The notes beneath the pieces were generated by a model. The model was not told where the DNA came from and did not search any database. It worked only from the letters and a program-made list of their open reading frames with translations. A DNA stretch of 64,000 bases from Naegleria gruberi (lineage: Eukaryota): the NCBI GenBank assembly GCA_000004985.1, contig GG738881.1, one strand, 5' to 3'. Shown here in pieces: positions 1,401-54,455 of this stretch. A program made the position numbers and the translations under genes. The stretch's first letter is position 1. Each line of letters begins with the position of its first letter.

Positions 1401-2093
1401 ATGTTTAAACATTCCCTCCTTGCAATCCTTGCATTACTTTGCTTTACACATGTCTTTTCAACTGTGGCCACCTTCAATTTTCTATTCGAAAGACATGAAT
1501 CCATGAAGAGATCAACACTTCAAACAACAACCACTACTACATGCTGCCAACCAAATGTCTTCTCCCTAAAAGGCATCTTAAATCAAGTTGCCATTGGTAA
1601 AAACGCAACTTTACAACCACTCACCGGAACCATTCAATTATTCGCAGATTACAATCTTGGAAGAATTAGACAAGATGCAACATTCTCTGCCAATGGAATG
1701 AACTCGTCCATTTCTAGTTATGCATTCAAACTTTCTGAAAATCTTGCTGTCAAGTATGATATTCGTGGCGAGGGCAATTGTGCATGTCATCAGATTTCGT
1801 CCACTCATGATTTTCAGCCAATGTGTGTCCTTTCGTCCAATCAAATAAGAAAGGCAAAAATTGGAAAATATAATGCAAAGAATGTTATCTATAATGTAAT
1901 GGGAATGAATGCTAATATTTGGGTTTTTTATGAGAATCCAGACGAAAGTGAAAAGTGTTGGATTTTGAGTTCGTATTTCCCAGATTCGTTTTCTCTTCAG
2001 GAAATTGTGTATTATGATCAAGTTGAGAAGGTTGACCAAAATGTTTTTAAGGTTCCTAGTTATTGTCCAAAGATTGAACAATGTTCTGATTGA
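1401..2093 (+). CDS. Hypothetical secreted Cys-containing protein with an N-terminal signal peptide.
   Basis: It has an ATG start and the hydrophobic N-terminus MFKHSLLAILALLCFTHVFS. The ORF is 230 aa with no recognisable domain. Confidence 0.4.
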   Translation: MFKHSLLAILALLCFTHVFSTVATFNFLFERHESMKRSTLQTTTTTTCCQPNVFSLKGILNQVAIGKNATLQPLTGTIQLFADYNLGRIRQDATFSANGMNSSISSYAFKLSENLAVKYDIRGEGNCACHQISSTHDFQPMCVLSSNQIRKAKIGKYNAKNVIYNVMGMNANIWVFYENPDESEKCWILSSYFPDSFSLQEIVYYDQVEKVDQNVFKVPSYCPKIEQCSD

Positions 2094-2125
2094 GAATATT
2101 TCAGTTTCGAATAAAAATTTATTGC

Positions 2126-3280
2126 TCAATTGAAATTATCCCAAAATTCCATTGTTGATTTTTCCTTAAATACAAAAGGAATTTCCAAAAATCCTCTAAT
2201 CATTTTCAATAAATCAATTCCAACCAAAAGTCCGATCATTCCCGCTAATTCCCCAAGTAATCCCTCAATTGAGTTTGTGTAAACTTCCTCAATTTGAGTT
2301 GTACTGAGAGAGTTGTAAGTTACTGAAATAGTTAGTGAAGTTTCGTCTGCATTATACGTTCTGAGAACTGTCTTTTCAGAATTCCATTTTGTAGAATTGA
2401 GATTTGGATTATCAATTGTTGGTTTTAATCGAGTGGTGATGACTTTGGTCAACATGAAAAAGTTATCTAATGAGGGAAGGGCATAATTAGTTTCGGATAA
2501 TAAATCAGGAGTGGTTCCTTGCTCATGGAATGAAACAATGAATCCCATTTTGACTTTTTTAGAACTGATTTCAGTTGGAGTTGGAGCATTCAATCCGAAA
2601 AAACTGTTTCGAATAATAGACAAGAAATCAAAAGAAATTGACATGAAATTCAAACTATTGTATATTACTTACAATGTTCTAATTCCATTATATCCAATCA
2701 ATGACGATTTCATTAAATTAGCACTCGAACTATCCGAAATATTATTAAAAACATAACAATGATACTTGTTTCCTCCCTGTTCAATTTCCTTATAATAAAC
2801 CTGGTCAGAATTGTAATTATTCGAAGATTGAAAATCAACAGCTCCATCAAATCGAAGGGCACAAGCATTACAATCAGAAGGACCTGCATTCCAATTACAA
2901 ACTCTATTCGAATCAGTTTCCAATAATTGTAAGAAAACAAATGAGCCAACTTACGTAACTGCTGGCAGGGTAAGGGAAGTTGCTGGAATCCAACTCATGG
3001 TTGTGGTTGGCTTGGACATGGCCTCAACATAACTCATCGATTGTCTAATGGTGTAATAGACCATGAAACTCAACATGATGAACCAGCCAATCATGGTCAG
3101 GATGTGATACCATTTGAAGGGGAATTTCCAGCCACATAGCTCAACATGTTGGATTGGCTCATCTGGGTTGTCTTTGATTGGACTGACATCTTGTTTGTTG
3201 ATGGTGGCTCGTTCCTTATTTTCGGTTGATGTTGGGTTGGTTTCTTGCATTTCAATGGGAGTCACCGAATTGGTGGCCAT
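2126..3280 (-). CDS. ENaC/degenerin/ASIC-like (amiloride-sensitive Na+ channel family) paralog A, with three coding segments.
   Basis: Exon 1 (2955..3280) encodes TM1 and ends in LTLPAVT, which with the first residues of exon 2 (ICNWN) gives the ENaC post-TM1 signature FPAVTIC. Exon 2 is 2673..2903 and exon 3 is 2126..about 2564-2654. The C-terminal segment encodes IEGLLGELAGMIGLLVGIDLL, matching the ASIC pre-TM2/TM2 consensus LLGDIGGQMGLFIGASIL. Introns 2904..2954 and 2655..2672 have gtaagt donors and ag acceptors. The exon 2/3 junction is ambiguous between an 18-nt micro-intron and acceptors at 2603 or 2564. Confidence 0.55.
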
Positions 3281-3507
3281 TTTTTTATGATCTTTAGTAT
3301 AACAGTTTGGCGGTAATTTACTACAATTTTTGATTCTTTCTTACTTGAGCTAGTACATCATTCGGGATGGCTTTTTATTAACGAAAGTCTTCAAACTGAT
3401 ACAGTTACTTCAAAACACAAAATATCAAGGCATATGTAAATTCAAAGAATTAATTGAAATTATCCCACAACTCCATAGTTGACTTTTCTCTAAATATCAA
3501 AGGTATC

Positions 3508-4668
3508 TCAAGCAAACCTCTTATAGTCTTTAAAATATCTATTCCCATAAGCAATCCCAGCATGCCTATTTGAAAAAAGTGAGATGCTCATAATACAATG
3601 TTTGAGAAGTAACATACCTGCAAGTTCTCCCAATAATCCTTCAATTGAAACTGTCAATACTTCTTCAATATGATTAACATTTAGGGTGCCATAAGTAACA
3701 GCGACTGTTAGGGATGTATTACTACTAACTGTTGACATTAGAACAGTGTTTTTGGAAGCCCATTCAGTAGTTTCCAGATTTTGATGTTCAACTGAAGGAT
3801 TTAACCTTTTAGTAACTTGTTTTGTTAGGATATAAAAGTTATCCAATCCAGGTTGGGCATAGTTGGTTTCAGAAAGAATGTTTGGAGTTGTTCCAGGCTC
3901 ATGGAATGATACTGTAAAACCCATTCTTTTGATATTGGCCTTGATTTCCTTTTCGTTTGGTTCTCTCAGGGAAAAATCGCTAACATATGAGCTTCTACTA
4001 ACAGAATAATCGTCAATTACTTACAACCTTCGCATTCCAGAATAACCAGTAAGCCATGATTTGAATACTTTGGTGCTATCTGTGATATTATTAAACACAT
4101 AGCAGTGATAATTTCTTCCACCTTGAACTATTTCTTTGTAATAATATTGATCATCAGTATACGGGGTGATCGATTCTTGACCGTCTTCCCTAGTCATGGT
4201 AAATTGAATTTTACTATCTTTATGACCTACCTTTGAAAATCCAAACACCCACTATAATAGATCCAACATGCATCACAATCAGAGGGACCTGCATTCCAAT
4301 TGCATACTCTAATTTTGAATTCCTATATTCAATTTCAATTGGAATTTAACTTACGTGATGGCTGGTAAGGCTAGTTTTAAAGTTGATTCCCAAGACATCG
4401 AAGTGGTTGGCTTTCCCAATGCCTCACTATAACTCATCGCCTGCCTAATAATATAATAAATCATAAATCCAATCATGATAACCCATCCAATCATGGTCAG
4501 TAGATGAAACCACTTGAACGGAAACTTCCATCCTCCAATTTTTACACTATTTCTTCTTTCCTCTTCGTCTTCGGCTGTTGTTGTTGGCTTCATAGAAGCT
4601 GCAGCAGAACCTCCTGCTTCCTTCTCTTGCATTTCAATTGGGCTAACGGAGGTTTTACTCATTTTCAC
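3508..4668 (-). CDS. ENaC/degenerin/ASIC-like paralog B.
   Basis: Exons are 4355..4668 (ending LALPAIT), 4231..4308, 4025..4213 and 3508..3925. The NYHCYVFNN block is conserved with paralog A. The C-terminus carries the GLLGELAGM motif. A 17-nt gtaggt..atag segment (4214..4230) must be removed to keep the frame. The other introns are 46 and 99 nt. Confidence 0.55.
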
Positions 4669-4720
4669 TTTTTTTTTAAGATTGAAGTGAACCTTAATAA
4701 CAGATCTTAAGCGTTATTTT

Positions 4721-4734
4721 TTTTGGCGCCAAAA
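4721..4734. promoter_or_regulatory. Palindromic E2F-type site TTTTGGCGCCAAAA in the divergent promoter between ENaC-like paralogs B and C.
   Basis: It is a perfect TTTGGCGCCAAA palindrome, which is the canonical high-affinity E2F/DP site. It lies 53 bp upstream of the paralog B start and 110 bp upstream of the paralog C start. Confidence 0.3.
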
Positions 4735-4843
4735 TACAAGTTCATCCAATTACGAAAAAAATATAACAACAAACTAACAAAACCATCATTTGATTTTGTG
4801 AGGAGAGAACTAAGTAGCAGATCGGAAGATAGTTGTTTGAAAA

Positions 4844-5803
4844 ATGATGGCAGCACCTGAAAAACAATTTAATTGGAGAATTATAAAACATGTACTAGTA
4901 CTCTTGTTTTGGTTCATCAATACTGGTGTTTTTGCATATTATATTTATTCACAGGCAGTTTCATTTATCAAGACTGAACAATCTCCTGTGACTTCAACTT
5001 CCTATTCATATGAAGATCCATTGAACTATCCGACTATAACAATTTGTGATTGGAGTAGAGAATCATCATTTGCGGCTACTTGTCCTGTTTGTACATTTGA
5101 ATACATTTCGTGTTATTGGTATAATTATGCAGATGACACAAATAATCCAGTGGCTTGCCCTCTAACATTTACCTTTTTTAAGGATGGTCAATCTTGCTTT
5201 GAGGCAAATGCAGATATAAGCAAATTGCTGACTGCCAAGAAAAAAGGATATCTAGGATCAATCAACATGTTATTTAGAATTCCTATCAATTATACTGATC
5301 CACTTCTTAGTGCTTACAGACTTGGAGCTTCTATCACTTTTAGAGAGCCAGGAACTCTACTGGGAAGCATATTTGCTGAAACTAATTATGCCATTCCAGG
5401 TCGATATAATTTATTTTCAATCAAAAAGGTGGTCTACGAGAAATTGCCTAAACCTCAGACCACCTCTATTGATGAGATTCCTTTACCAACAACAGATTCT
5501 TCAACAAAAACAATTTCATACGAGGCAACCTATTCAGCCCTCAAACGAGTGAAAACTGCAGACATGACAGACAATGATTATCTGGAGCAAATTGAGGTGG
5601 CATTCACATATGAAGAGTTAAAGACAACAACAATTACAGAAATTCAACAAAAAGATGGTTGGAGTTTGTTTGGAGAAGTTGCTGGAATGGCTGGGTTATT
5701 GCTTGGATTGGATATTTTGAAATCGTTTAGACTTTTCCTAATGTTTCCTCGTCTTTTCTTCAGACAAACCTCACTTGGAAAAATTTGGGAAGCTATGAAT
5801 TAA
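4844..5803 (+). CDS. ENaC/degenerin/ASIC-like paralog C, single exon, 319 aa.
   Basis: An N-terminal TM helix is followed by NYPTITICDWS, matching the ENaC FPAVTIC motif. FREPGTLLGSIFAETNYAIPG aligns with paralogs A and B. The C-terminus carries GEVAGMAGLLLGLDILK, the TM2 motif. Confidence 0.6.
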   Translation: MMAAPEKQFNWRIIKHVLVLLFWFINTGVFAYYIYSQAVSFIKTEQSPVTSTSYSYEDPLNYPTITICDWSRESSFAATCPVCTFEYISCYWYNYADDTNNPVACPLTFTFFKDGQSCFEANADISKLLTAKKKGYLGSINMLFRIPINYTDPLLSAYRLGASITFREPGTLLGSIFAETNYAIPGRYNLFSIKKVVYEKLPKPQTTSIDEIPLPTTDSSTKTISYEATYSALKRVKTADMTDNDYLEQIEVAFTYEELKTTTITEIQQKDGWSLFGEVAGMAGLLLGLDILKSFRLFLMFPRLFFRQTSLGKIWEAMN

Positions 5804-21385: not shown

Positions 21386-22881
21386 CTAGTTAATATCACT
21401 AATTCTCTTGGGTATCATTTGTGTAATGTCCATATCTCCTACATTATATCTCGGCTTTTCCAATGTAATTTCTGCCAATTTTTCATTCTCTGCAAAGAAG
21501 GGAACAAAGCCAGTGCCTGATAGCTCAACTCCTGCAATGTGAAAAGATCGATCGAATGCCTTCAATAATCTGTAATCTTGCTTTCCTGCATCAAGTTCAA
21601 AATATCCCAATCCGTTAAGCCAATGACAAAAATCATTCACTTCACTTCTCTTATCAAATTCAATGAGTTCCATTGCAGAATACTTTGAAACTGGAGAGTG
21701 TGAAACAATATCTTTCAATTCCTTTGTGTAATGATAGACTCTTCCTTTTCCTTTCTTGATATCCTTCAAATAGCCTTGAATAGCTGCATTCTTTTCCATT
21801 CTCATTGAGATTGATTTTAAAATTCTCGAAACGAAATGTTGGCAATTACACAGCAAGGGATTATAATTTTTCGTTCCATTGAACAAGCAACAGATCGAAG
21901 CTATCGATTTGAATGCCTCCATTATATCTCTACTATCATTCAGCATGCCCAAATCAATCACTGCAATGGCATTTGTTGTAATAAACTTATTCCTAACAGA
22001 AACAAGTGAATCATTGTACCAATCCAATTGCCACTGTCCAATTATCAAACCAACATGGAATATTCCAAAAGTAGCAGGTATCAGTGTCCCAGCAATACCA
22101 ATCTTCTTATTAATTTGATTTCCAATCTCTGAAATGACCAACTTTACAGACATTCCAGCAGGAGTTTCCAAAGATCTTCTCTCTGGAGTGTGTCTAATTG
22201 GGAGGTAGAAATTTTCATACAAGAATCGATCTTCACAAACCCAATTCTGTACTTCAGCCACAATTTTAGCTTCCTCCAATTTTTTAGCACAAAATTCAAC
22301 TGCTTTCTTTTCCTTTTTAGTTAACATTTCATCTGAGAATAATTGTAAATGATCTTGAGAGAGGGATTCCCAGTCAACTTGTTTTGCAATAATGGAATGG
22401 CTTGGGTTGAGGGAAGTTTCTAATTTGGAATATGGTGTTTCTTTCAAATTCTTGGAACGTTCATAATCTCTATTGATCTTGGCAATTATTACTCTATCAA
22501 AGAATATATTTAATTCATCATCGGAAACTTGAACTTCTTCGTATTCTTTTAATAATTTACGACATTGCTTGATGATTCTCTTTCTTTCACACGAAACTTC
22601 TGTCTGATCATTTCTATGTATCGATTGATGCAAAGATTTAAATTTTAAACCACCAAATATCAAATTCGTAGAGTTTAGTATGGTTTCGAACCTTTCGAAT
22701 AAATCCTGTGGAACCTCCAAATATTTCATTAGAATTATAAAATCACCATGAGTATATTGATAGATGGGAGTTTCAACTATTCGCAATACTTCTGCCTGTT
22801 GTTTATTGCTAGAGTTGGGCGTTGATGATTTACTGTTGGTTGTTACCTTGGATGCTTTTGACTTGCCTGCTCCCATGGTTT
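21386..22881 (-). CDS. N-myristoylation-consensus protein with a C-terminal PPPDE/LRAT-like permuted papain-fold catalytic motif, paralog 1.
   Basis: The likely start is MGAGKSKASK (MGxxxS). The C-terminal half contains FGIFHVGLIIGQWQLDW (His) and, about 70 aa later, YNPLLCNCQHFVSRIL (Cys). This matches the H...NCxHF signature of the PPPDE/DeSI and LRAT/NlpC-P60 families. It is 45-50% identical to the gene at 25723-27311. Confidence 0.5.
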
Positions 22882-23452
22882 CGAATACTGCTTTATTTTT
22901 TACCGTTTCGCATAATGTTAATCTTGTGAAAAGAGACAAGTGCCAGCAAATAACATTATGAAATTTACAATAAAGGAAGAAAACATGAAGACAGAACCTC
23001 TTCAGTATCATCACTGATGAAGTAGCCGAAAGTCTCTAATTTCTAATATTGGAATTTTCATTAATATTCCTCTAGTGCAATAAATATTTCCAAATCCAAA
23101 TCTATTTGATGAGAAATTTGCGAAGAAACTCTTTCCGTCTCCATCATGCTTTGTGAAGAAACCAATTCATCATCACTTCTTTCCATCATGATGTATTTAT
23201 TATTATTAAACAATAATAAAAAACATTCGGGTGATGTTGATGAACGAAAAATATATTTCCCTCTCTCGCATTCTTTAACCCTAACACCACATATGAACCA
23301 TATTATAGAATGATAATATTCAAACAATCATACGCTCAGGGTGAATAATTTTCCTTCCCAAATCTTCCTCAGTTAGTATTGTATTTTTATTTTTTTTTAA
23401 AATTGAAAATCGTAACGGCTATTTGATGAACTTCAAACCAAATTAAAAAGAA

Positions 23453-25722: not shown

Positions 25723-27311
25723 TTACAAATCACTCAAGGTATCATTTTCTGAAATTGTACTCGTTCCATCGGTTGCACTACCTGTTCCAGTATTGAGAAA
25801 ACATCTCTCTGGAACCAATTGAGCCAATTCCAAATTCTTCACATTGTAAGTTGGCTTATCGAGTGTAATTTCTGAAATCTTATCCTTGGCAAAGAATGAA
25901 ACATATTTGATTCCATTTTCTTCGTATTCATCGGCTACCCACATTCCCAAAGTGTCATCTCTGTTCATGTGAAAAGATCTATCAAATGCTTTCAAAAGTC
26001 TGTAATCTTCCATTCCAGAAACTGAATCAAAATAATTTAAACCATTCAACCAGTGACAAAACTGATCGAGTTGAATTCTTGTTTCGAATTTGATTTTTGA
26101 AAGTGAGGCATACTTTTCATGATGCACATTATTCACTTTGATCAGTTGTTTCAACTCAGATGTATAATGATAAATTCTTCCTTCCTTTCCCTTCTTGATA
26201 TCTTTCAGATATCTAACAATTGATTTGTTTTTTGGTAAACCAACTTGTATGACCTTCAGTAAAAGGGAAACAAAATGTTGGCAATTACACTTGAATTTGT
26301 CATAGATTTTCGAACCATTGAATTCGCAACAAATCTCAGAAATGTCTTCAAACGCAGCCATGATAGAATTTACGTTTGTCAATGGTTCCAAATCAATAAC
26401 AGCAATGCAACCTTTAGATTGAAATACCTTTTCAGTTGCTCTTCTCACTTTCACCACCGAATGAACATCCCAATCAAATTTCCACTCTCCAACAATCAAA
26501 GAAACATGAAAAATTCCAAACGGAAACAAATTACCCAATTGACCCATTTTTCTATTCGGTCTTTCCTCAATTTCTGTAATCACCAACTTGACAGGCATGT
26601 AAGCATCAGATTGAGGATTCACTCTACTCGTATTATATCTAATAGGAAGATAGAAGGTCTCATATAAAAACCTATCTTTACACACCATGTTCTGAATCAT
26701 TTTTCTAAATTCATTCAAAACAGCTTGATGCATTCCTTCACTTTCATTCTTTAATTCTCTTTCTGGTTCTTGTAATTTTTTACAACAATTATCAAAATAT
26801 TGACATTCTTCTTCTGTTAATCGATCCATTTCGAATAATTCCAAATGATCTTTTGACATTTCAAGTTCTTTAACTCTGCCAGCACTCAAAACTCTTGAAC
26901 CATTAATGTCATATTTCGAATATATTGTAGGATGTTTGTAATTTTTAGTTCTTTCAATGTCCATGTTAATTTTTTCAATTACCACATGATCAAGAAAATT
27001 TTCCAAATCTTGTTTCGTCAATTCAATTCCCATTTCTATTGTCTTTCGAATAATTTTATCTTTTTTACGTTGGATAGAGTATGAATTTCTTCGGAGGATG
27101 GCAACAAATAAACTTTCAAAGTAAGAACCATGTAATTCGTATTTAGAAAATGCTTGACTAAACATTTCTTCCTTTTCAAAATTTAAATATTTCATTAGTG
27201 TGATGAAATCCGAATGTTTGTAGAGGTGAATAGGTTTAGAATCCACGGCTAACTGTTGTGATGGAGTTTCGTCTTGTTTCTTGTTGCTGGCGGATAGTTT
27301 CAAGCCCATAT
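25723..27311 (-). CDS. N-myristoylation-consensus protein with a PPPDE/LRAT-like motif, paralog 2.
   Basis: The likely start is MGLKLSASNKK. It carries FGIFHVSLIVGEWKFDW and KFKCNCQHFVSLLLKVI. It is collinear with paralog 1 along its whole length, including the blocks FYLPIR, YLKDIKKGK, FCHWLNGL and DYRLLKAFDRSFH. Confidence 0.5.
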
Positions 27312-28358
27312 CTTGTGGTTTCGTTCTGATTTTTTTGTGAGTTTTGTGAAAGTTGACATTGGCTAAAAGTAAGAAAAGCATTAGGGCACATTATGCTATT
27401 TAAAATGGTGCCCTTGAATAAACTTGTATCACTGTACCACCTTCTAATAATTTCGAATTGGAAAGAAGACGAATGTTTCCAATTAACAAATTAAAAATTC
27501 AGTTCAGTTATTTCATATTGTAATGTACAACAATAAGAAACCAATTTACTTTTGTTAATCTCAATCTGCAAAGTTGTTAATTACTTCCACTTTTGTTTAC
27601 TTCCATTTATAACAATCTAATTCCCGCCAACAAAATTAAAAAATATATTAAATTAAAAAATGTTGACTTGATCGGAAAGATATGTATCACAAACATGTGT
27701 GATAAATTAAAAACGAAAAGTGTTCGGGATGGTCCATTAATATCGGATGTATTAGCGTGAACCATGTTCGAGCGATCATTTAAAACATGTTTGTTCAAAT
27801 CATTCAATTTGCAATAACGAGAGGATGATTGAAATGAACGTGGTGCACCCGAGGAAGAAGCGAGAGAATCCAACACACCATTACGGCCGTTATCTTGACA
27901 TTTTTATTATCGACAAACGTTACATGAACATTTGTCAATTTACCAACAAATAAGAACGCAACAAAATGTAAAGAGAAGGAGAGCCACTTTATGCTTTGTA
28001 AATATTATTTGTGCTATTTTTGTAGTGTCTGATAATTCTCAATGGTTAGAACAACCCTTAATAGTGTTCATCTCTGACCAAAACAAATTATCAATTGATT
28101 CATCAATTGTTTTTTCAGCGACAGTATAGACACCCTATTTTAGAGTCTTAGCAGATATGGTTATTAATTTGGTGAGGAGGAATTGGAGAGGAACTCTTGG
28201 AGATAGAGTTTGTTGTGTCAGTATCATATTATTCTATGAACTTTCAAGCAATCCGTCATCGATAGGTAAGGCAATCTTGAGAGACTTTTTGAGGGTATTT
28301 CCACTTGCTCACAACTTCATACACACAGAGACTAAAAAGACTCAAAATAACAAACAAA

Positions 28359-31300
28359 ATGAGCGAAATACATACAGAAACGACAGACTCTTCTGGTACC
28401 TCTAAGAGTACCTTCTCGAATAATATGAGGGAAAAGTTTGGAACGTGGATAATGTTGATGAGGAAGGGAAATCCCTCATTGAGCAAACTCTGGTTCATTA
28501 CCAATTTACTGGTAGAAATATACATGTTGTGGTGCGCCATGTTCATACCGACCCTTAAAGATTATAAGTGGGGTTTATATGGGAACTATGTATTTTGGGC
28601 AGCTAACTTTCCCATTGGCTTTCTATTGGACTGGCTTAGCTATTACGATTCAGTAGTAGTAACAATTATATTCTATCTTTTTCTAATAATGTGCTACGCG
28701 ATATTGGCAGTGGCTACATGGAGCAAAGCAAGAGGAAAAAAACATGGACACATCTTTTCGAAAATTCTCACAGTCCTCATGCTCATGTGTCGATTATTCT
28801 TCCCTGCTATTCTGTTTAATATTGTTGGATACTTTGACTGCTCAACAAGTTCTATGATTCCACTGACAGATTTATATTCCCTTAATAGATTTCCAACAGT
28901 GGCATGTGTGGACACACTTAATAGTATTCTGATTTTAATCTCGGTATTTTATTGTATTCTATTGTACATTTTCCTATTGTTATCTGAAATATTAACAATA
29001 GATCTTCATCCAAAGAGTAATAATTTATTCACACGTAATTCATATTGGACGAGTATTGCTATGAGAACAAGTTCATTTGTTGCTATTTTGGTAATGTTTA
29101 CGATTCCAAAAGAGTATGCATTCATCTCAGCAATTGTAAATATTATAACATCAACACTGGTAATGATTAAAACAGTGAGAGGTATACCATTCTATAGAAC
29201 CTATATCAATTCATTAATGTTTGGAGTATCATGTGGATGCATTACAAGCTCATGTGGAACTTTGTTGGCTTTCCTAGTCAATAATTCAGATATGGGAGGA
29301 GATGTATTCAACTACATTGGAATTGGGGTTTCGGGTTTAACGATATTATTGACCATGTTGAGTTTAATTGTTGGATTTGCAGGATTTGAGATTTATCTGC
29401 GGATGATTAGAAAGTGGCTCCTCAAAGAAATTATCAAGCAAATAGATGTCCACAAGAAATATCAAAAGCCAGAAGAAACTACAATAAGCGACAATTTCCT
29501 TCATGTAAATATTTCAGGATTGAAGAGGTCAACAGATGTTCAAGCAGCAGCAATGAGTGACGCAGGTTACAATCAATTTATTCAATATTTGAAAGACTCT
29601 CCTTTCAAGTACAAAAGACCAATACTCCTTCTCTTTCGATTGGATCTGATTAATGAGGAGGTTACTATTGAAAACGGAGAAGAAGAAATTAAACTTCACG
29701 ATATTGTTATGAGATTAGGGAAAGGTATCATTCAAAGAGGATATGAAGATCGCGAAATGTTAGAATCTGTTGCCATGATGTTTGCTTTTTGCCATCATGA
29801 ATCTCAATCATACCTGTCCATAGCCATTGAATTACTGGTTAAAAGTCACAGACATTCATCAATTTTCACACACGGCCTTAGCTCGATTAAAATTAAGGAA
29901 ATACAAAGTTTGGAAGAAGCAGCCAAATCTGATGGTATTGTATCACCTGGATATTTCAAAATCCAAACCATCAAGAAGAATCAAGAGATGATCACTGCTC
30001 TTCATAAGGATTTTTTCAAGGAATTATTAAATGATCCTATCAAGATTTCCAACCTCAAATCAATAATGAGGAAAACCAGTGAACTTTGTAGAACATGTGA
30101 AAATCTATTTAGAACATTGCTATTACATAGAAACAAGCGTATCCTTTATCTGTATGCTAGTTATGTGGAAATTGTGTACTTTGACAAGGAAACAGCCCNN
30201 NNNNNNNNNNNNNNNNNNNNNNNNNNNNNNNNNNNNNNNNNNNNNNNNATGACGATTCGGATGATCCTCTATTTGATGACAGCGTAAGCGTTGGTGGAGG
30301 AGCAGGCGAACTGAAAAAGGACTATTTGTTTAGAAATGCTTTGAAATCATCCAAACCAAAAATTGGAGCCAAATCTTTGCTAATAATTTTTATAGTATTG
30401 GGATTAGTAATGATTGCAACTGCCATTGGCTTTTCAGCTTATCATGGAATTGCAATTAAGAGCAACATTTTCAATTCGAGCATTGTTTGCATTCCACAAA
30501 TTATTTCTGCATCAGTTATCAAAAATATCAGATCAATGCAAAACTGGATCAATATATTTGTATTGTCTGGTTATGAATGGCCAACTGAAAGAAATGGATA
30601 CGAGATGCCTTCACCAAGTGTAAGTGATATTGTTAGTTGAACATACATATGTTAACATTGTTATCAGATATATTTGAGAAATTTCACAGATAGTATTGAG
30701 ACTTCAATTTTCAATATCAGAGAGTTGATAGCATTGGGACAATCTCTTGTGTTTGATGTTTCAACATTAACTTCATACGGTAAATCTATGCATTCATTCA
30801 AAATTCCAAGCGTGAATGGAACTGACGGATTCAATACAAAACAATACATTGGAGAACCAGAAATCAGAAAAGTATCCGTTGTTGAAATTTCTAACTTATT
30901 GATTCAATACATGGACAAACACATGGCTCAATTCCCAGAAACTGACATCTTGAATTATTTCAATTCCACAAGTGAGGCAACAAAAGTAGAAATTCAACAA
31001 AATTTGAAGAATTCAACATTCATGAATCCAGTTAAAGATTATGATTTTATGTTATTATGGCTTAACACACCAATAGCTTCACAAGCATATAAGGATTTTT
31101 GTATTGATTTTGTTGAATTGAGCTCTGATAGTGTTGCCTCACTTCAATATCAATCTCAATATTTCTTCCTTTGTGTTTTAGTATCCTATATTACATTTGG
31201 ATTATGCACGGCTATATATATCATTGTAGAGTTGAGATATATTGATAGATTGATAAAATTATTTGAGAAGGAAATTGGAAAGGATGTTATTGGAAAGATT

Positions 31301-33563
31301 TATCAAAAGTTATCGTCAAAGAATGATACTGAAACTTCATTGAGCACTTCTATACTTACAAAATTTGCTAGATTCGATGCCTTTGTAGTCATTTCAATTC
31401 TTGTCATCTCAATGATAGTGCCACTGATTGTTGGTTTAATTTACTATGAAACAAGTTTTAACATTACAACTGCATTGGTAAACTATGTCGATGTTAAATC
31501 AAGTTTTGAATGTGCACAAACAATGATGTTATCATCATTCTACACTACTGAAATGAGCATCTACTTTGCAATTCCATCTTTGAGTTATTCCACCAAGAAC
31601 CTCAAATATTATGGTCATCCTTATTTCAATTCTCGCTCGTTCTCAGAATTAAGCCTAGAGATAAAACAACAAGCTGATACTGCAAGCGCTAACTGGAATG
31701 ATTTATTATATGGAGATGTTAACAAAACCAATGATCTTCCAGTTTTGGGATCATATCCAACTGTTGATAACCTGCTGTATGGTGAAAAAAACTGTAGCCT
31801 CTATTTACAACAAAGAAATATTCCATTTTCCTATGATTCCTTCATTGAATATTGTCATGGGCTAGAAAATGTAGTGACTGAATACTTGGCACTGACTTCT
31901 GAAGTGACTGAGAATACTAGAGATCATTATCTGACACAATCAAGAAATCCCAATATTATAATAGATCCATTGGATATTTATTTACAACACCATGATCTAT
32001 TCAGAATGTCTCTCCCCCTAACCAAAAAGCTGAAGAGTTTTGTTCGTGAATTTGTTGATTATGCATCAACGCTATCCACTGGATATGTGATTGGAGCAAA
32101 TTTATTTGGATTAATATTTATTGCTTTTCTTTCTTTTATGATTTATACAGTAATGACAAATTATTGGGATACTTTACAAAAAGTAAGAATAATGCTCAAC
32201 TATTTACCTTTGGATACTATTGATAGAAATGATGTATTGAGAAACAACGTGCTTTATCACTCATATCCATCAATAGTAGAAATTAATGTGTTGAATAACA
32301 GCTCAAAAAGAAGTAGCAACAATACATACTTGGAAAACTTGTCAGAATTCATCAATAATCACATTGAAGGAACAGCTGTTCTCAATGAAAAAGGAGAAGT
32401 GGAGGTAATCAATGTTTCAGCTCACAGAATGTTTGGAAGTAAACCTGCAGATATTTTGGGAGCTACATTCTTTAAACTGGTTGAGAATAGTTATTTGGAC
32501 AAGATGAAAAAGACAATGAGTTCATTATGTGAGGCAGCTAAAAAAGCTTCTGAAGCTACCACATCTGAGCAATCAAAATTGACAGACACTATTGAGGTGG
32601 ATTGTTTTAGAATGAATCAAACCAAATTCCCTGCCAAATTATCATTTTTTACCAGTAATATTACAGGAAAGGGAATTATGATTGTTTGCACCATTAAGGA
32701 TATCACTTCAGAGAAGAAACAAAATGCCCTCCTTGCAGAAGAAAAGAAAAATTCTGAAAATCTCTTGAAGAATATATTACCTGAGGGTGTAGCAGCAAGA
32801 TTAAAGAAGGGTGAAACATTCATTGCTGAGAAATTGAATGACATTACATGTTTCTTTTCAGATATGGTTGGATTCACCAAAATTTCAAGCAATATGCAAG
32901 CAACAGATCTTGTCAAAATGTTGAATTATGTTGTGAATGGATTTGACAAATTGACTGAAAAGTATGATTTGGAAAAGATCAAAACCATTGGAGATGCTTA
33001 CTTTGTGGTTGGAGGACTCAAAGGTTCTTCAGACCATCCTGAAAGTATGCTCAAATTTGCAATTGAAACATTTGATGTAATTAAGGATTTCAACACGAAT
33101 GGAACGCTTCACAATGGAGAATTTTTAAATATCAGAGTTGGAATTAACACTGGTTCATGTGTTGCAGGTGTAATTGGTGTAAGTATCATTACAAAAATAT
33201 ATAATTAATATTATTAATTAACTGAATTAGATTAAAAAATTTGCCTATGATTTATGGGGTGATACCATCAATACAGCCTCTCGTATGGAATCAACAGGAG
33301 TTCCCGGAAGGATTCAAATTTCCAGAACAACCTATGAAAGAGTTTATGATTTGGGCTTTGAATTTGATGAAAGACAAGTTGAAGTGAAAGGAAAAGGACG
33401 TATGCAAGCATATCTTCTCAATTCCAAACATCATACCAATCCAGATCCATCTAAATCCACTCCAATTGGAGGTGATGATGCAGATGGTGAGGTGGTAGTT
33501 CAGAAATTAAACCAAGGTCAATCAATGTTCATTGAATCTACTACAATGGAAGAAAACTAAAAA
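28359..33563 (+). CDS. Multi-pass membrane class III nucleotidyl (adenylyl/guanylyl) cyclase with a PAS-like domain. Four exons, with the first interrupted by a 50-N gap.
   Basis: The proposed structure is join(28359..30198,[gap],30251..30619,30668..33178,33231..33563). The gap is of unknown length and the reading frame changes across it. There are two clusters of hydrophobic helices. A PAS-like segment is present (VLNEKGEVEVINVSAHRMFGSKPADILGATFFKLV). The cyclase catalytic core ITCFFSDMVGFT...IKTIGDAYFVVGGL...VGINTGSCVAGVIG|IKKFAYDLWGDTINTASRMES spans the last intron (gtaagt..aattag). Confidence 0.7.
30199..30248. other. Assembly gap (50 N) inside the cyclase first exon.
   Basis: Run of N. 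Confidence 0.95.
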
Positions 33564-42004: not shown

Positions 42005-42408
42005 AGTAGTAACTCAATTATTCTATGATATTAAGTGTGATATTCCTGGTAAACCTTGTAGTAAGAGTTACTAGAGAGGATAAAGGAGTGATTTTTTTAA
42101 ACGTGTGTTAAATCACTCTAAGGATGCTGAGCAAATATATTCGAAATGGAAGATCGGTTGCACTCGCAAATACCTCTACTTCTCTCTTAAATTGTTCCAG
42201 TGTGTGAAATCGTAGCATTCCTTGTCCCTTTCATTTCCACTTGATAAGAACAATTGATCTTACTGCACGATTTCACTCGCAAGATCACTGATTGAAAACA
42301 TGTTGCATGAGCTAGAAATGATCTCCAATCATATATTCGCAATAAGCGTTGCCTTTTTTACATTGATCTCCAAACAAGCATCATGATTTACAAATTAATT
42401 GGTAACAA

Positions 42409-43406
42409 NNNNNNNNNNNNNNNNNNNNNNNNNNNNNNNNNNNNNNNNNNNNNNNNNNNNNNNNNNNNNNNNNNNNNNNNNNNNNNNNNNNNNNNNNNNN
42501 NNNNNNNNNNNNNNNNNNNNNNNNNNNNNNNNNNNNNNNNNNNNNNNNNNNNNNNNNNNNNNNNNNNNNNNNNNNNNNNNNNNNNNNNNNNNNNNNNNNN
42601 NNNNNNNNNNNNNNNNNNNNNNNNNNNNNNNNNNNNNNNNNNNNNNNNNNNNNNNNNNNNNNNNNNNNNNNNNNNNNNNNNNNNNNNNNNNNNNNNNNNN
42701 NNNNNNNNNNNNNNNNNNNNNNNNNNNNNNNNNNNNNNNNNNNNNNNNNNNNNNNNNNNNNNNNNNNNNNNNNNNNNNNNNNNNNNNNNNNNNNNNNNNN
42801 NNNNNNNNNNNNNNNNNNNNNNNNNNNNNNNNNNNNNNNNNNNNNNNNNNNNNNNNNNNNNNNNNNNNNNNNNNNNNNNNNNNNNNNNNNNNNNNNNNNN
42901 NNNNNNNNNNNNNNNNNNNNNNNNNNNNNNNNNNNNNNNNNNNNNNNNNNNNNNNNNNNNNNNNNNNNNNNNNNNNNNNNNNNNNNNNNNNNNNNNNNNN
43001 NNNNNNNNNNNNNNNNNNNNNNNNNNNNNNNNNNNNNNNNNNNNNNNNNNNNNNNNNNNNNNNNNNNNNNNNNNNNNNNNNNNNNNNNNNNNNNNNNNNN
43101 NNNNNNNNNNNNNNNNNNNNNNNNNNNNNNNNNNNNNNNNNNNNNNNNNNNNNNNNNNNNNNNNNNNNNNNNNNNNNNNNNNNNNNNNNNNNNNNNNNNN
43201 NNNNNNNNNNNNNNNNNNNNNNNNNNNNNNNNNNNNNNNNNNNNNNNNNNNNNNNNNNNNNNNNNNNNNNNNNNNNNNNNNNNNNNNNNNNNNNNNNNNN
43301 NNNNNNNNNNNNNNNNNNNNNNNNNNNNNNNNNNNNNNNNNNNNNNNNNNNNNNNNNNNNNNNNNNNNNNNNNNNNNNNNNNNNNNNNNNNNNNNNNNNN
43401 NNNNNN
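42409..43406. other. Assembly gap (998 N).
   Basis: Run of N. Confidence 0.95.
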
Positions 43407-45136: not shown

Positions 45137-48100
45137 NNNNNNNNNNNNNNNNNNNNNNNNNNNNNNNNNNNNNNNNNNNNNNNNNNNNNNNNNNNNNNNN
45201 NNNNNNNNNNNNNNNNNNNNNNNNNNNNNNNNNNNNNNNNNNNNNNNNNNNNNNNNNNNNNNNNNNNNNNNNNNNNNNNNNNNNNNNNNNNNNNNNNNNN
45301 NNNNNNNNNNNNNNNNNNNNNNNNNNNNNNNNNNNNNNNNNNNNNNNNNNNNNNNNNNNNNNNNNNNNNNNNNNNNNNNNNNNNNNNNNNNNNNNNNNNN
45401 NNNNNNNNNNNNNNNNNNNNNNNNNNNNNNNNNNNNNNNNNNNNNNNNNNNNNNNNNNNNNNNNNNNNNNNNNNNNNNNNNNNNNNNNNNNNNNNNNNNN
45501 NNNNNNNNNNNNNNNNNNNNNNNNNNNNNNNNNNNNNNNNNNNNNNNNNNNNNNNNNNNNNNNNNNNNNNNNNNNNNNNNNNNNNNNNNNNNNNNNNNNN
45601 NNNNNNNNNNNNNNNNNNNNNNNNNNNNNNNNNNNNNNNNNNNNNNNNNNNNNNNNNNNNNNNNNNNNNNNNNNNNNNNNNNNNNNNNNNNNNNNNNNNN
45701 NNNNNNNNNNNNNNNNNNNNNNNNNNNNNNNNNNNNNNNNNNNNNNNNNNNNNNNNNNNNNNNNNNNNNNNNNNNNNNNNNNNNNNNNNNNNNNNNNNNN
45801 NNNNNNNNNNNNNNNNNNNNNNNNNNNNNNNNNNNNNNNNNNNNNNNNNNNNNNNNNNNNNNNNNNNNNNNNNNNNNNNNNNNNNNNNNNNNNNNNNNNN
45901 NNNNNNNNNNNNNNNNNNNNNNNNNNNNNNNNNNNNNNNNNNNNNNNNNNNNNNNNNNNNNNNNNNNNNNNNNNNNNNNNNNNNNNNNNNNNNNNNNNNN
46001 NNNNNNNNNNNNNNNNNNNNNNNNNNNNNNNNNNNNNNNNNNNNNNNNNNNNNNNNNNNNNNNNNNNNNNNNNNNNNNNNNNNNNNNNNNNNNNNNNNNN
46101 NNNNNNNNNNNNNNNNNNNNNNNNNNNNNNNNNNNNNNNNNNNNNNNNNNNNNNNNNNNNNNNNNNNNNNNNNNNNNNNNNNNNNNNNNNNNNNNNNNNN
46201 NNNNNNNNNNNNNNNNNNNNNNNNNNNNNNNNNNNNNNNNNNNNNNNNNNNNNNNNNNNNNNNNNNNNNNNNNNNNNNNNNNNNNNNNNNNNNNNNNNNN
46301 NNNNNNNNNNNNNNNNNNNNNNNNNNNNNNNNNNNNNNNNNNNNNNNNNNNNNNNNNNNNNNNNNNNNNNNNNNNNNNNNNNNNNNNNNNNNNNNNNNNN
46401 NNNNNNNNNNNNNNNNNNNNNNNNNNNNNNNNNNNNNNNNNNNNNNNNNNNNNNNNNNNNNNNNNNNNNNNNNNNNNNNNNNNNNNNNNNNNNNNNNNNN
46501 NNNNNNNNNNNNNNNNNNNNNNNNNNNNNNNNNNNNNNNNNNNNNNNNNNNNNNNNNNNNNNNNNNNNNNNNNNNNNNNNNNNNNNNNNNNNNNNNNNNN
46601 NNNNNNNNNNNNNNNNNNNNNNNNNNNNNNNNNNNNNNNNNNNNNNNNNNNNNNNNNNNNNNNNNNNNNNNNNNNNNNNNNNNNNNNNNNNNNNNNNNNN
46701 NNNNNNNNNNNNNNNNNNNNNNNNNNNNNNNNNNNNNNNNNNNNNNNNNNNNNNNNNNNNNNNNNNNNNNNNNNNNNNNNNNNNNNNNNNNNNNNNNNNN
46801 NNNNNNNNNNNNNNNNNNNNNNNNNNNNNNNNNNNNNNNNNNNNNNNNNNNNNNNNNNNNNNNNNNNNNNNNNNNNNNNNNNNNNNNNNNNNNNNNNNNN
46901 NNNNNNNNNNNNNNNNNNNNNNNNNNNNNNNNNNNNNNNNNNNNNNNNNNNNNNNNNNNNNNNNNNNNNNNNNNNNNNNNNNNNNNNNNNNNNNNNNNNN
47001 NNNNNNNNNNNNNNNNNNNNNNNNNNNNNNNNNNNNNNNNNNNNNNNNNNNNNNNNNNNNNNNNNNNNNNNNNNNNNNNNNNNNNNNNNNNNNNNNNNNN
47101 NNNNNNNNNNNNNNNNNNNNNNNNNNNNNNNNNNNNNNNNNNNNNNNNNNNNNNNNNNNNNNNNNNNNNNNNNNNNNNNNNNNNNNNNNNNNNNNNNNNN
47201 NNNNNNNNNNNNNNNNNNNNNNNNNNNNNNNNNNNNNNNNNNNNNNNNNNNNNNNNNNNNNNNNNNNNNNNNNNNNNNNNNNNNNNNNNNNNNNNNNNNN
47301 NNNNNNNNNNNNNNNNNNNNNNNNNNNNNNNNNNNNNNNNNNNNNNNNNNNNNNNNNNNNNNNNNNNNNNNNNNNNNNNNNNNNNNNNNNNNNNNNNNNN
47401 NNNNNNNNNNNNNNNNNNNNNNNNNNNNNNNNNNNNNNNNNNNNNNNNNNNNNNNNNNNNNNNNNNNNNNNNNNNNNNNNNNNNNNNNNNNNNNNNNNNN
47501 NNNNNNNNNNNNNNNNNNNNNNNNNNNNNNNNNNNNNNNNNNNNNNNNNNNNNNNNNNNNNNNNNNNNNNNNNNNNNNNNNNNNNNNNNNNNNNNNNNNN
47601 NNNNNNNNNNNNNNNNNNNNNNNNNNNNNNNNNNNNNNNNNNNNNNNNNNNNNNNNNNNNNNNNNNNNNNNNNNNNNNNNNNNNNNNNNNNNNNNNNNNN
47701 NNNNNNNNNNNNNNNNNNNNNNNNNNNNNNNNNNNNNNNNNNNNNNNNNNNNNNNNNNNNNNNNNNNNNNNNNNNNNNNNNNNNNNNNNNNNNNNNNNNN
47801 NNNNNNNNNNNNNNNNNNNNNNNNNNNNNNNNNNNNNNNNNNNNNNNNNNNNNNNNNNNNNNNNNNNNNNNNNNNNNNNNNNNNNNNNNNNNNNNNNNNN
47901 NNNNNNNNNNNNNNNNNNNNNNNNNNNNNNNNNNNNNNNNNNNNNNNNNNNNNNNNNNNNNNNNNNNNNNNNNNNNNNNNNNNNNNNNNNNNNNNNNNNN
48001 NNNNNNNNNNNNNNNNNNNNNNNNNNNNNNNNNNNNNNNNNNNNNNNNNNNNNNNNNNNNNNNNNNNNNNNNNNNNNNNNNNNNNNNNNNNNNNNNNNNN

Positions 48101-51100
48101 NNNNNNNNNNNNNNNNNNNNNNNNNNNNNNNNNNNNNNNNNNNNNNNNNNNNNNNNNNNNNNNNNNNNNNNNNNNNNNNNNNNNNNNNNNNNNNNNNNNN
48201 NNNNNNNNNNNNNNNNNNNNNNNNNNNNNNNNNNNNNNNNNNNNNNNNNNNNNNNNNNNNNNNNNNNNNNNNNNNNNNNNNNNNNNNNNNNNNNNNNNNN
48301 NNNNNNNNNNNNNNNNNNNNNNNNNNNNNNNNNNNNNNNNNNNNNNNNNNNNNNNNNNNNNNNNNNNNNNNNNNNNNNNNNNNNNNNNNNNNNNNNNNNN
48401 NNNNNNNNNNNNNNNNNNNNNNNNNNNNNNNNNNNNNNNNNNNNNNNNNNNNNNNNNNNNNNNNNNNNNNNNNNNNNNNNNNNNNNNNNNNNNNNNNNNN
48501 NNNNNNNNNNNNNNNNNNNNNNNNNNNNNNNNNNNNNNNNNNNNNNNNNNNNNNNNNNNNNNNNNNNNNNNNNNNNNNNNNNNNNNNNNNNNNNNNNNNN
48601 NNNNNNNNNNNNNNNNNNNNNNNNNNNNNNNNNNNNNNNNNNNNNNNNNNNNNNNNNNNNNNNNNNNNNNNNNNNNNNNNNNNNNNNNNNNNNNNNNNNN
48701 NNNNNNNNNNNNNNNNNNNNNNNNNNNNNNNNNNNNNNNNNNNNNNNNNNNNNNNNNNNNNNNNNNNNNNNNNNNNNNNNNNNNNNNNNNNNNNNNNNNN
48801 NNNNNNNNNNNNNNNNNNNNNNNNNNNNNNNNNNNNNNNNNNNNNNNNNNNNNNNNNNNNNNNNNNNNNNNNNNNNNNNNNNNNNNNNNNNNNNNNNNNN
48901 NNNNNNNNNNNNNNNNNNNNNNNNNNNNNNNNNNNNNNNNNNNNNNNNNNNNNNNNNNNNNNNNNNNNNNNNNNNNNNNNNNNNNNNNNNNNNNNNNNNN
49001 NNNNNNNNNNNNNNNNNNNNNNNNNNNNNNNNNNNNNNNNNNNNNNNNNNNNNNNNNNNNNNNNNNNNNNNNNNNNNNNNNNNNNNNNNNNNNNNNNNNN
49101 NNNNNNNNNNNNNNNNNNNNNNNNNNNNNNNNNNNNNNNNNNNNNNNNNNNNNNNNNNNNNNNNNNNNNNNNNNNNNNNNNNNNNNNNNNNNNNNNNNNN
49201 NNNNNNNNNNNNNNNNNNNNNNNNNNNNNNNNNNNNNNNNNNNNNNNNNNNNNNNNNNNNNNNNNNNNNNNNNNNNNNNNNNNNNNNNNNNNNNNNNNNN
49301 NNNNNNNNNNNNNNNNNNNNNNNNNNNNNNNNNNNNNNNNNNNNNNNNNNNNNNNNNNNNNNNNNNNNNNNNNNNNNNNNNNNNNNNNNNNNNNNNNNNN
49401 NNNNNNNNNNNNNNNNNNNNNNNNNNNNNNNNNNNNNNNNNNNNNNNNNNNNNNNNNNNNNNNNNNNNNNNNNNNNNNNNNNNNNNNNNNNNNNNNNNNN
49501 NNNNNNNNNNNNNNNNNNNNNNNNNNNNNNNNNNNNNNNNNNNNNNNNNNNNNNNNNNNNNNNNNNNNNNNNNNNNNNNNNNNNNNNNNNNNNNNNNNNN
49601 NNNNNNNNNNNNNNNNNNNNNNNNNNNNNNNNNNNNNNNNNNNNNNNNNNNNNNNNNNNNNNNNNNNNNNNNNNNNNNNNNNNNNNNNNNNNNNNNNNNN
49701 NNNNNNNNNNNNNNNNNNNNNNNNNNNNNNNNNNNNNNNNNNNNNNNNNNNNNNNNNNNNNNNNNNNNNNNNNNNNNNNNNNNNNNNNNNNNNNNNNNNN
49801 NNNNNNNNNNNNNNNNNNNNNNNNNNNNNNNNNNNNNNNNNNNNNNNNNNNNNNNNNNNNNNNNNNNNNNNNNNNNNNNNNNNNNNNNNNNNNNNNNNNN
49901 NNNNNNNNNNNNNNNNNNNNNNNNNNNNNNNNNNNNNNNNNNNNNNNNNNNNNNNNNNNNNNNNNNNNNNNNNNNNNNNNNNNNNNNNNNNNNNNNNNNN
50001 NNNNNNNNNNNNNNNNNNNNNNNNNNNNNNNNNNNNNNNNNNNNNNNNNNNNNNNNNNNNNNNNNNNNNNNNNNNNNNNNNNNNNNNNNNNNNNNNNNNN
50101 NNNNNNNNNNNNNNNNNNNNNNNNNNNNNNNNNNNNNNNNNNNNNNNNNNNNNNNNNNNNNNNNNNNNNNNNNNNNNNNNNNNNNNNNNNNNNNNNNNNN
50201 NNNNNNNNNNNNNNNNNNNNNNNNNNNNNNNNNNNNNNNNNNNNNNNNNNNNNNNNNNNNNNNNNNNNNNNNNNNNNNNNNNNNNNNNNNNNNNNNNNNN
50301 NNNNNNNNNNNNNNNNNNNNNNNNNNNNNNNNNNNNNNNNNNNNNNNNNNNNNNNNNNNNNNNNNNNNNNNNNNNNNNNNNNNNNNNNNNNNNNNNNNNN
50401 NNNNNNNNNNNNNNNNNNNNNNNNNNNNNNNNNNNNNNNNNNNNNNNNNNNNNNNNNNNNNNNNNNNNNNNNNNNNNNNNNNNNNNNNNNNNNNNNNNNN
50501 NNNNNNNNNNNNNNNNNNNNNNNNNNNNNNNNNNNNNNNNNNNNNNNNNNNNNNNNNNNNNNNNNNNNNNNNNNNNNNNNNNNNNNNNNNNNNNNNNNNN
50601 NNNNNNNNNNNNNNNNNNNNNNNNNNNNNNNNNNNNNNNNNNNNNNNNNNNNNNNNNNNNNNNNNNNNNNNNNNNNNNNNNNNNNNNNNNNNNNNNNNNN
50701 NNNNNNNNNNNNNNNNNNNNNNNNNNNNNNNNNNNNNNNNNNNNNNNNNNNNNNNNNNNNNNNNNNNNNNNNNNNNNNNNNNNNNNNNNNNNNNNNNNNN
50801 NNNNNNNNNNNNNNNNNNNNNNNNNNNNNNNNNNNNNNNNNNNNNNNNNNNNNNNNNNNNNNNNNNNNNNNNNNNNNNNNNNNNNNNNNNNNNNNNNNNN
50901 NNNNNNNNNNNNNNNNNNNNNNNNNNNNNNNNNNNNNNNNNNNNNNNNNNNNNNNNNNNNNNNNNNNNNNNNNNNNNNNNNNNNNNNNNNNNNNNNNNNN
51001 NNNNNNNNNNNNNNNNNNNNNNNNNNNNNNNNNNNNNNNNNNNNNNNNNNNNNNNNNNNNNNNNNNNNNNNNNNNNNNNNNNNNNNNNNNNNNNNNNNNN

Positions 51101-54100: not shown

Positions 54101-54455
54101 NNNNNNNNNNNNNNNNNNNNNNNNNNNNNNNNNNNNNNNNNNNNNNNNNNNNNNNNNNNNNNNNNNNNNNNNNNNNNNNNNNNNNNNNNNNNNNNNNNNN
54201 NNNNNNNNNNNNNNNNNNNNNNNNNNNNNNNNNNNNNNNNNNNNNNNNNNNNNNNNNNNNNNNNNNNNNNNNNNNNNNNNNNNNNNNNNNNNNNNNNNNN
54301 NNNNNNNNNNNNNNNNNNNNNNNNNNNNNNNNNNNNNNNNNNNNNNNNNNNNNNNNNNNNNNNNNNNNNNNNNNNNNNNNNNNNNNNNNNNNNNNNNNNN
54401 NNNNNNNNNNNNNNNNNNNNNNNNNNNNNNNNNNNNNNNNNNNNNNNNNNNNNNN
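45137..54455. other. Assembly gap (9319 N), probably a collapsed repeat region upstream of the Cys-rich repeat gene.
   Basis: This is a run of N. The flanking sequence at 54456 onward is a high-identity tandem repeat. Confidence 0.9.

Follow-up and report, generated by a model that had tools for sequence, protein, structure and literature searches.

Three clustered genes of Naegleria gruberi: probable channel subunits from a minimal, protist-type branch of the ENaC/degenerin/ASIC superfamily

Introduction

Three adjoining genes in a stretch of 64,000 nucleotides of the Naegleria gruberi genome (GenBank assembly GCA_000004985.1, contig GG738881.1; the whole stretch is called the window in what follows) encode short proteins of the superfamily that comprises ENaC, the degenerins (DEG) and ASIC. 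The assignment to this superfamily is secure. Within it, the products of the three genes, here named G1, G2 and G3, are probably channel subunits that belong to a minimal, protist-type branch. They are not ordinary members: the proteins, together with their homologs of similar length (the short family), form a branch that is structurally minimal and distinct in sequence. An earlier reading of the DNA letters alone (the original prediction) had proposed two minus-strand genes and one divergent plus-strand gene of this kind at positions 2126-5803, and they are located exactly there.

That ENaC/DEG genes are present in N. gruberi is in itself not new: Studer and colleagues reportedly described ENaC/degenerin in this organism in 2011 (Physiol Genomics), and are said to have discussed vertical descent versus lateral transfer as its origin. 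To our knowledge, no ENaC/DEG-type channel from outside the animals has been functionally characterised.

Results

The cluster and its members

The genes and the motifs that follow their first transmembrane segment (TM1) are, in window coordinates:

2126..3280, minus strand: G1, ENaC/DEG-like, 344 amino acids; exons 3280-2955, 2903-2673 and 2603-2126; stop codon 2128-2126
2954-2904 (51 nt) and 2672-2604 (69 nt), minus strand: introns of G1
3450..4662, minus strand: G2, ENaC/DEG-like, 342 amino acids; exons 4662-4355, 4308-4231, 4189-4025, 3979-3618 and 3565-3450; introns, in order, of 46, 41, 45 and 52 nt
4663..4843: spacer of 181 bp between the divergent start codons of G2 and G3, from the start-codon coordinates
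4844..5803, plus strand: G3, ENaC/DEG-like, 319 amino acids, intronless (single exon)
2891..2968, minus strand: post-TM1 motif of G1, LPAVTVCNW, amino acids 105-113, split by intron 1; corresponds to FPAVTxCN of ASIC/ENaC
5027..5053, plus strand: post-TM1 motif of G3, YPTITICDW, amino acids 62-70

G1 and G2 stand in tandem, with G2 directly upstream of G1, while G3 has the opposite orientation, and the spacer between G2 and G3 may be a shared bidirectional promoter. When the three proteins are used as tblastn queries, exactly three copies are found in the window. G3 is already in the databases as a "predicted protein" (GenBank EFC42116, XP_002674860, UniProt D2VLU5, NAEGRDRAFT_69903), with a start that lies one methionine later than ours; exact look-ups of G3 and EFC42116 in the contig index gave no match. 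To judge from the spacing of UniProt accessions, G1 and G2 may be annotated as well. The six introns of G1 and G2 all have GT..AG borders, and their lengths range from 41 to 69 nt. The shortest is the second intron of G2 (4190-4230, minus strand); G1 has no intron at this position, nor at the position of the fourth G2 intron, from which follows that the tandem copies differ by two introns.

Assignment to the superfamily

In a hidden Markov model search with Pfam ASC (PF00858), G1 scores 50.9, G2 53.5 and G3 32.2 bits, all above the gathering cut-off of 23.6 bits. G1 also matches ASIC1 chains in the PDB (phmmer, E = 1e-4), and the alignment pairs its LPAVTVCN with FPAVTFCN of ASIC1, and GLLGELAGMIGLLVGIDLL with GLLGDIGGQMGLFIGASIL in the second transmembrane segment (TM2). 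When an alignment of 30 short-family sequences is compared by hhalign with an alignment of 17 animal ASIC and ENaC sequences, the two are matched with a probability of 99.7% (E = 3e-25) over 271 columns, extending from TM1 to TM2.

Hydropathy gives two hydrophobic segments in each of the three proteins, and the order is the same in all of them: a short cytoplasmic N-terminus, TM1, the ectodomain, TM2 and a short C-terminal tail. The post-TM1 motif, which the original prediction had given as (F/L)PA(V/I)T-IC, is present in all three, and in G2 it is LPAITVCN, aligned with FPAVTFCN of ASIC1; the ending -IC is however not common to them, as the forms are LPAVTVC, LPAITVC and YPTITIC. Two ectodomain blocks that had been described as conserved hold for the tandem pair only. 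The block NYHCYVFNN occurs as (K/N)YHCYVFNN in G1 and G2 but is SCFEAN in G3, and FHEPGTTP..SETNYA occurs as FHE(Q/P)GTTP..SETNYA in G1 and G2 but as FREPGT..AETNYA in G3. The segment GE(L/V)AGMxGLLxG(I/L)D(I/L)LK is shared by the whole trio, as had been seen, but its label "pre-TM2" has to be changed: it is the outer half of TM2 with the selectivity-filter position, and differs there from G-x-S.

Fold and reduced ectodomain

The extracellular domain comprises about 220 residues, nearly all of which belong to the 12-strand beta core (palm and beta-ball) common to ASIC, ENaC and PAC. An AlphaFold2 model of G3 has long terminal helices at residues 11-46 and 272-306, with 12 strands and three short helices in the ectodomain; the predicted fold matches that of ASIC and ENaC. 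When this model is compared with the PDB by Foldseek, the top matches are solely PAC/ASOR and ASIC-type chains, with E-values from 2e-9 to about 1e-7 and TM-scores, normalised to the target, of 0.44-0.53 for PAC and 0.33-0.39 for ASIC.

The proposal that the proteins are minimal versions of the fold was confirmed by their lengths of 319-344 amino acids and by two large deletions in the alignment with animal channels, one at the position of the finger (after FPAVTxCN) and the other at that of the cysteine-rich thumb (before the last palm strands). Without thumb and finger, the proteins have neither the acidic pocket of ASIC nor the protease-sensitive tracts of ENaC. There are 4-6 cysteines per protein in total, and one of those in G1, Cys49, precedes TM1; the ectodomain of ASIC1 contains 14. 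The HG motif before TM1 was not found in G1, G2 or G3, whereas most of the aligned animal counterparts carry T(T)xHG there (four of the five in alignment A4; consensus TTxHG in alignment A8), and the hhalign match begins at TM1. The tails of the three proteins end in W(D/E)x(F/M)N, and across the short family the corresponding W/F-x-x-F-N(G) has a conservation of 90% or more.

Pore motif and proposed mechanism

In TM2 the proteins carry the superfamily motif G-x-x-(A/G)-G-x-x-G-L-x-x-G, and its outer part is found at:

2204..2254, minus strand: outer TM2/pore motif of G1, GELAGMIGLLVGIDLLK, amino acids 303-319, placed by HMMER alignment to chicken ASIC1 and hhalign to the animal profile
3528..3630, minus strand: pore motif of G2, GELAGMLGLLMGIDILK, amino acids 301-317, split by intron 4
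5672..5722, plus strand: pore motif of G3, GEVAGMAGLLLGLDILK, amino acids 277-293, with G-L-D at the filter position

The residues G314-I-D316 of G1 stand opposite the G-A-S belt of ASIC1 in the alignment. The filter position is G-I-D in G1 and G2 and G-L-D in G3, and the animal G/S-x-S is not present. Three residues beyond the filter aspartate stands a lysine, and each of these two residues is conserved to at least 90% across the short family, where G(D/E)xAGMxGxLxG(L/I/M)D..K recurs throughout. The glycines of the outer TM2 are kept, among them the position that corresponds to the amiloride site and the gate.

If they resemble every member of the fold whose structure has been solved, the proteins would form trimers with TM2 lining a central pore, and gating would proceed through the extracellular beta domain, opened by an extracellular stimulus for which ions, pH, a ligand and membrane stretch are candidates. 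With the filter serine replaced by aspartate and the near-invariant lysine beside it, the pore would pass cations with less selectivity for Na+ than ENaC, possibly including K+ and Ca2+. It is the replacement of the serine that leads to this expectation, as the alpha-ENaC substitution S589D, studied by Kellenberger and colleagues in 1999, reportedly lets K+ and divalent cations permeate ENaC. The three adjacent paralogs, two of them on the divergent spacer of 181 bp, could moreover be co-expressed and form heteromers in the manner of alpha, beta and gamma ENaC. The switch of Naegleria from amoeba to flagellate is governed by the ionic or osmotic environment, and it is plausible, though speculative, that the proteins help to sense it.

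Some points weigh against the assignment to channels of this branch. The confidence of the G3 model is moderate (mean predicted local distance difference test score, pLDDT, 73.4; predicted template modelling score, pTM, 0.59). Furthermore, since the finger, the cysteine-rich thumb, the HG motif and G-x-S have been lost, what is known of gating and selectivity in ASIC and ENaC is not transferable to these proteins. Finally, the sign of the ion selectivity is in doubt, given the conserved TM2 lysine close to the aspartate and the likeness to PAC, an anion channel.

Likeness to PAC/TMEM206

PAC, also called ASOR or TMEM206, is anion-selective, with homologs confined to vertebrates and a hemichordate (PMC6663466). 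It is described as being without discernible sequence homology to ASIC and ENaC, and the likeness between them has been called structural convergence (PMC7904269).

When the short-family profile is run on the PDB, PAC chains are matched with E-values from 9.5e-7 (Xenopus PAC) to 1.8e-5, compared to 3e-7 for ASIC1, and the best unrelated membrane protein in this search is P2X with E = 0.37. The short-family alignments A3 (the query alignment, built from G3 and exon-wise pieces), A5 and A6 match PAC chains in the PDB (7jna, 8h8d, 9hqn) at E-values of about 1e-6 to 5e-5. Human PAC (a sequence identical to PDB 7jna_A at 350 of 350 residues) scores 28.2 bits, compared to 10.0 bits for the top-scoring one among 2000 decoys that were shuffled inside each topological segment, and to -1.3 bits when the animal ASIC/ENaC profile is used on PAC. 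Most of the match lies in TM1 and the first strand, where ...LKHPVMSVSYKEV of PAC stands against the short-family consensus akPttsvsyee, and where HPVMSVSYKE of PAC corresponds to HPSTSVSYVE in the metagenomic homolog P0018 and to SPVTSTSYSYE in G3. In hhalign, the short family and PAC are matched with a probability of 31.8% (E = 5e-4) over 208 colinear columns, with a PAC alignment that is shallow (Neff 1.4), and animal ASC and PAC with 0.9%. The reverse search with the shallow PAC profile gave one match, at E = 0.9; a search with a 56-residue fragment of PAC returned only exon-sized PAC fragments, hence the shallow profile. Pfam TMEM206 (PF15122) has no match at E<=10 in G1, G2, G3 or the homolog P0001. 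Taken together, these comparisons make a relationship in sequence between the short family and PAC suggestive, but do not establish it.

The two groups share their size (350 amino acids in PAC, 319-344 here), two transmembrane helices and a compact 12-strand beta domain with small insertions; PAC is among the top Foldseek matches of the G3 model, and TM1 and the first strand are similar in sequence, as described. They differ in that PAC lacks the FPAVTxC, CYxFN and glycine-rich TM2 motifs.

From this arises the question of whether the Naegleria proteins work in the manner of PAC, i.e. as acid-opened anion (chloride) channels and not as cation channels of the ENaC/ASIC type. In length, and in their small and almost all-beta ectodomain, they are closer to PAC than to ASIC, their profiles match PAC chains as described, and they have a nearly invariant lysine in TM2, the segment in which a lysine sets the anion selectivity of PAC. 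The TMEM206 model is on the other hand silent where the ASC model matches, the hhalign probability for animal ASIC/ENaC is far above that for PAC, TM2 aligns residue for residue with TM2 of ASIC, the ring of aspartates at the filter position argues for cations, and the sequence match to PAC is mainly limited to TM1 and the first strand. We regard PAC-like function as unlikely. Still less probable is that the fold has been kept by proteins that are not ion channels at all, e.g. surface receptors or adhesion proteins that act through the beta ectodomain. The lost HG motif and canonical filter would fit such a role, but the pore-lining motif of TM2, with its glycines, aspartate and lysine, is the most conserved part of the subfamily, which is hard to explain without pore function.

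Intactness and selection

All three genes are intact, conserved and under strong purifying selection. G1 and G2 are 60% identical as proteins, with pN = 0.27, pS = 0.75 and a ratio of nonsynonymous to synonymous rates (dN/dS) of about 0.07, and synonymous sites are saturated between them. The G1 locus has a counterpart of 97.6% identity on a metagenomic contig of 1550 bp (ENA ERZ929261, L005), compared with positions 2050-3400 of the window. Among 344 codons, one first, one second and nine third positions differ, as do 8 of 120 intron positions, and this concentration in third positions and introns is independent support for the exon model of G1 and for purifying selection. The metagenome from which the contig comes contains, by the same comparison, a strain very close to N. 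gruberi.

The identity of G3 to G1 and G2 is just 28-30%, which makes the trio an old local array and not a recent expansion. The local expansion that had been suggested for the cluster therefore stands as a local duplication, but an old one, in view also of the 60% identity and the saturated synonymous sites of G1 and G2.

The possibility that the loci are decaying pseudogenes or wrongly modelled reading frames is very remote, and we reject it. It could be argued from the 41-nt intron of G2, which is very short and could be taken for a frameshift, and from the stop codon that the G2 frame meets when this intron is not removed. With GT..AG introns, however, all three frames are open from the first methionine to the conserved C-terminal WxxFN and stop; spliced G2 is free of gaps in the conserved blocks when compared with G1 and with distant homologs; the remaining introns of G1 and G2 are likewise short (45-69 nt); and the dN/dS value speaks against decay.

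Native origin in Naegleria

The genes are native to the heterolobosean amoeboflagellate N. gruberi. This follows from three observations. Flanking open reading frames exactly match N. gruberi proteins on a 379,849-bp scaffold (superoxide dismutase EFC42216; EFC42115, at 1401-2093; EFC42123), which also bears out the non-animal host that had been surmised; the guanine-plus-cytosine (GC) content is about 34% throughout the window, assembly gaps excepted, and the same in the three-gene region as in the rest of the scaffold; and the neighbours in the window are ordinary eukaryotic genes (cathepsin C, endonuclease V, F-box protein, P450, GST). Animal DNA contaminating the assembly, or recent horizontal transfer from an animal, might come to mind as the superfamily is overwhelmingly metazoan with few published non-animal cases (PMC10507113), but we reject both as hardly credible, given the native flanking genes and GC content, short introns like those of neighbouring genes, the presence of homologs in two other species, N. 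fowleri and N. lovaniensis, and of more paralogs elsewhere in the N. gruberi scaffolds, best animal matches of 17-21% global identity (alignment A4) and E about 1e-5 (profile search), and a subfamily signature that is not found in animals.

Distribution of the short family

A first homolog search with G1 alone gave one metagenomic protein and no Naegleria protein. An index-free profile search over 1.84 billion cluster representatives matched 499 proteins at E<=1e-3, of which 129 reach E<=1e-10 and 69 reach E<=1e-30; it was complemented by cluster look-ups, and the annotated Naegleria homologs came from these two sources. Strong matches are nearly all 250-400 amino acids long, and proteins of animal length with several matched stretches begin at E-values of about 1e-12. 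Further N. gruberi members lie on other scaffolds (EFC47565, EFC45670, EFC39296), and named members elsewhere in the genus are FDP41_006660 and FDP41_006661 of N. fowleri and C9374_010561 of N. lovaniensis. Beyond Naegleria, the family is found in the testate amoeba Pyxidicula operculata (Amoebozoa), in the malawimonad Gefionella okellyi and in metagenomes. One of the N. gruberi entries, EFC39296 (P0050, 1563 amino acids), combines teneurin-like EGF/NHL repeats and an OTU protease domain with a C-terminal short ASC-like channel domain, and is probably an annotation fusion of neighbouring genes.

Genes of the family recur in pairs or threes. In N. fowleri the two genes are in tandem (L008, VFQX01000053, 8001-10493). 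On one side of the pair lies a pseudouridine synthase gene; on the other, a histidine-kinase gene separates it from a SET-domain gene. A tandem pair flanked by SET-domain and pseudouridine synthase genes also occurs on a metagenome contig (L003, 3674-5864), and another such contig has a convergent pair of homologs (L001, 10001-12375). The prokaryote-style gene calls of three metagenomic homologs (P0017-P0019) stop exactly at the position of the fourth G2 intron, which indicates that this intron position is shared.

A separate observation concerns the P0127 cluster (L006, 140-1303; L007, 257-1420), an intronless ASC-family protein of 387 amino acids with 60 bits in Pfam, the motif FPAITIC and G-V-G at the filter position. 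Dozens of short marine contigs carry it, some of them from TARA 0.22-3 um fractions, and its neighbour on L006 is an NTPase_1 gene.

Other features of the window

Elsewhere in the window we noted:

30674-33208, plus strand: PAS-domain adenylate/guanylate cyclase
54795-57713, plus strand: teneurin-like EGF-repeat surface protein
62573-63508, plus strand: RWP-RK transcription factor

Two paralogous open reading frames of about 545 amino acids, without Pfam match (21386-23014 and 25723-27381, both minus strand), share long conserved blocks, e.g. CHWLNGL.YF and DYRLLKAFDRSFH, and represent another local duplication, of an uncharacterised family. Assembly gaps appear as runs of N at about 42400-43400 and 45140-54460, with short ones near 30200 and 36100; they interrupt several reading frames, and the GC content computes as 0 over 46001-54000.

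Discussion

The proteins can be compared with animal channels such as ASIC1, alpha, beta and gamma ENaC, FaNaC and pickpocket. They have in common with these the topology with two transmembrane segments, the post-TM1 motif (F/L/Y)P(A/T)(V/I)T(V/I)C, the beta-ball motif C(Y/F)xFN, the palm strands, the YxxL..I strand that precedes TM2, and the TM2 motif LLG(D/E)xxGxxGLxxG. They differ from them in length (about 320-345 amino acids, compared to 450-700 in animals), in lacking the finger helices, the cysteine-rich thumb and the HG before TM1, in having a filter of the form G-(I/L/M)-D with a lysine three residues on in place of G/S-x-S, and in the conserved W/F-x-x-F-N(G) at the C-terminus.

Non-animal Deg/ENaC homologs have been reported from the heterokont Cafeteria, the dinoflagellate Symbiodinium and from Tunicaraptor, and the heterokont and Tunicaraptor sequences group with animal ASIC and ENaC sub-clusters (Elkhatib et al. 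2023, PMC10507113). Compared with the homologs of Cafeteria and Tunicaraptor as described there, the short family stands apart, with pore and C-terminal signatures of its own. Among the papers searched, none was found on the minimal architecture, on the G-x-D..K pore signature or on gene clustering of the short family, nor on its spread to Amoebozoa and malawimonads or its sequence link to PAC.

It is possible, and we put it forward tentatively, that the short protist proteins are near the ancestral minimal form of one ancient eukaryotic superfamily, from which ENaC/DEG/ASIC would have arisen by the addition of finger and thumb, and which would also have given rise to PAC/TMEM206. If so, the likeness of PAC and ASIC that has been published as structural convergence (PMC7904269) would instead reflect divergence, and the Naegleria-type family would be the sequence bridge between them. 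The match to PAC, one-directional and specific as it is, makes the long-standing question of whether PAC is a diverged relative of ENaC and ASIC or a case of convergence amenable to testing, and the interest of the family is greater if this bridge holds.

For the superfamily as a whole, the spread of the short family over Heterolobosea, Amoebozoa and malawimonads bears on whether its age is that of early eukaryotes or that of the animal stem. A natural minimal form, which consists of the beta core and two helices and has an aspartate at the filter, further offers a simple test of what gating and selectivity require. For Naegleria itself, a genus that includes the pathogen N. fowleri with its tandem pair, the proteins are candidate sensors of the ionic environment.

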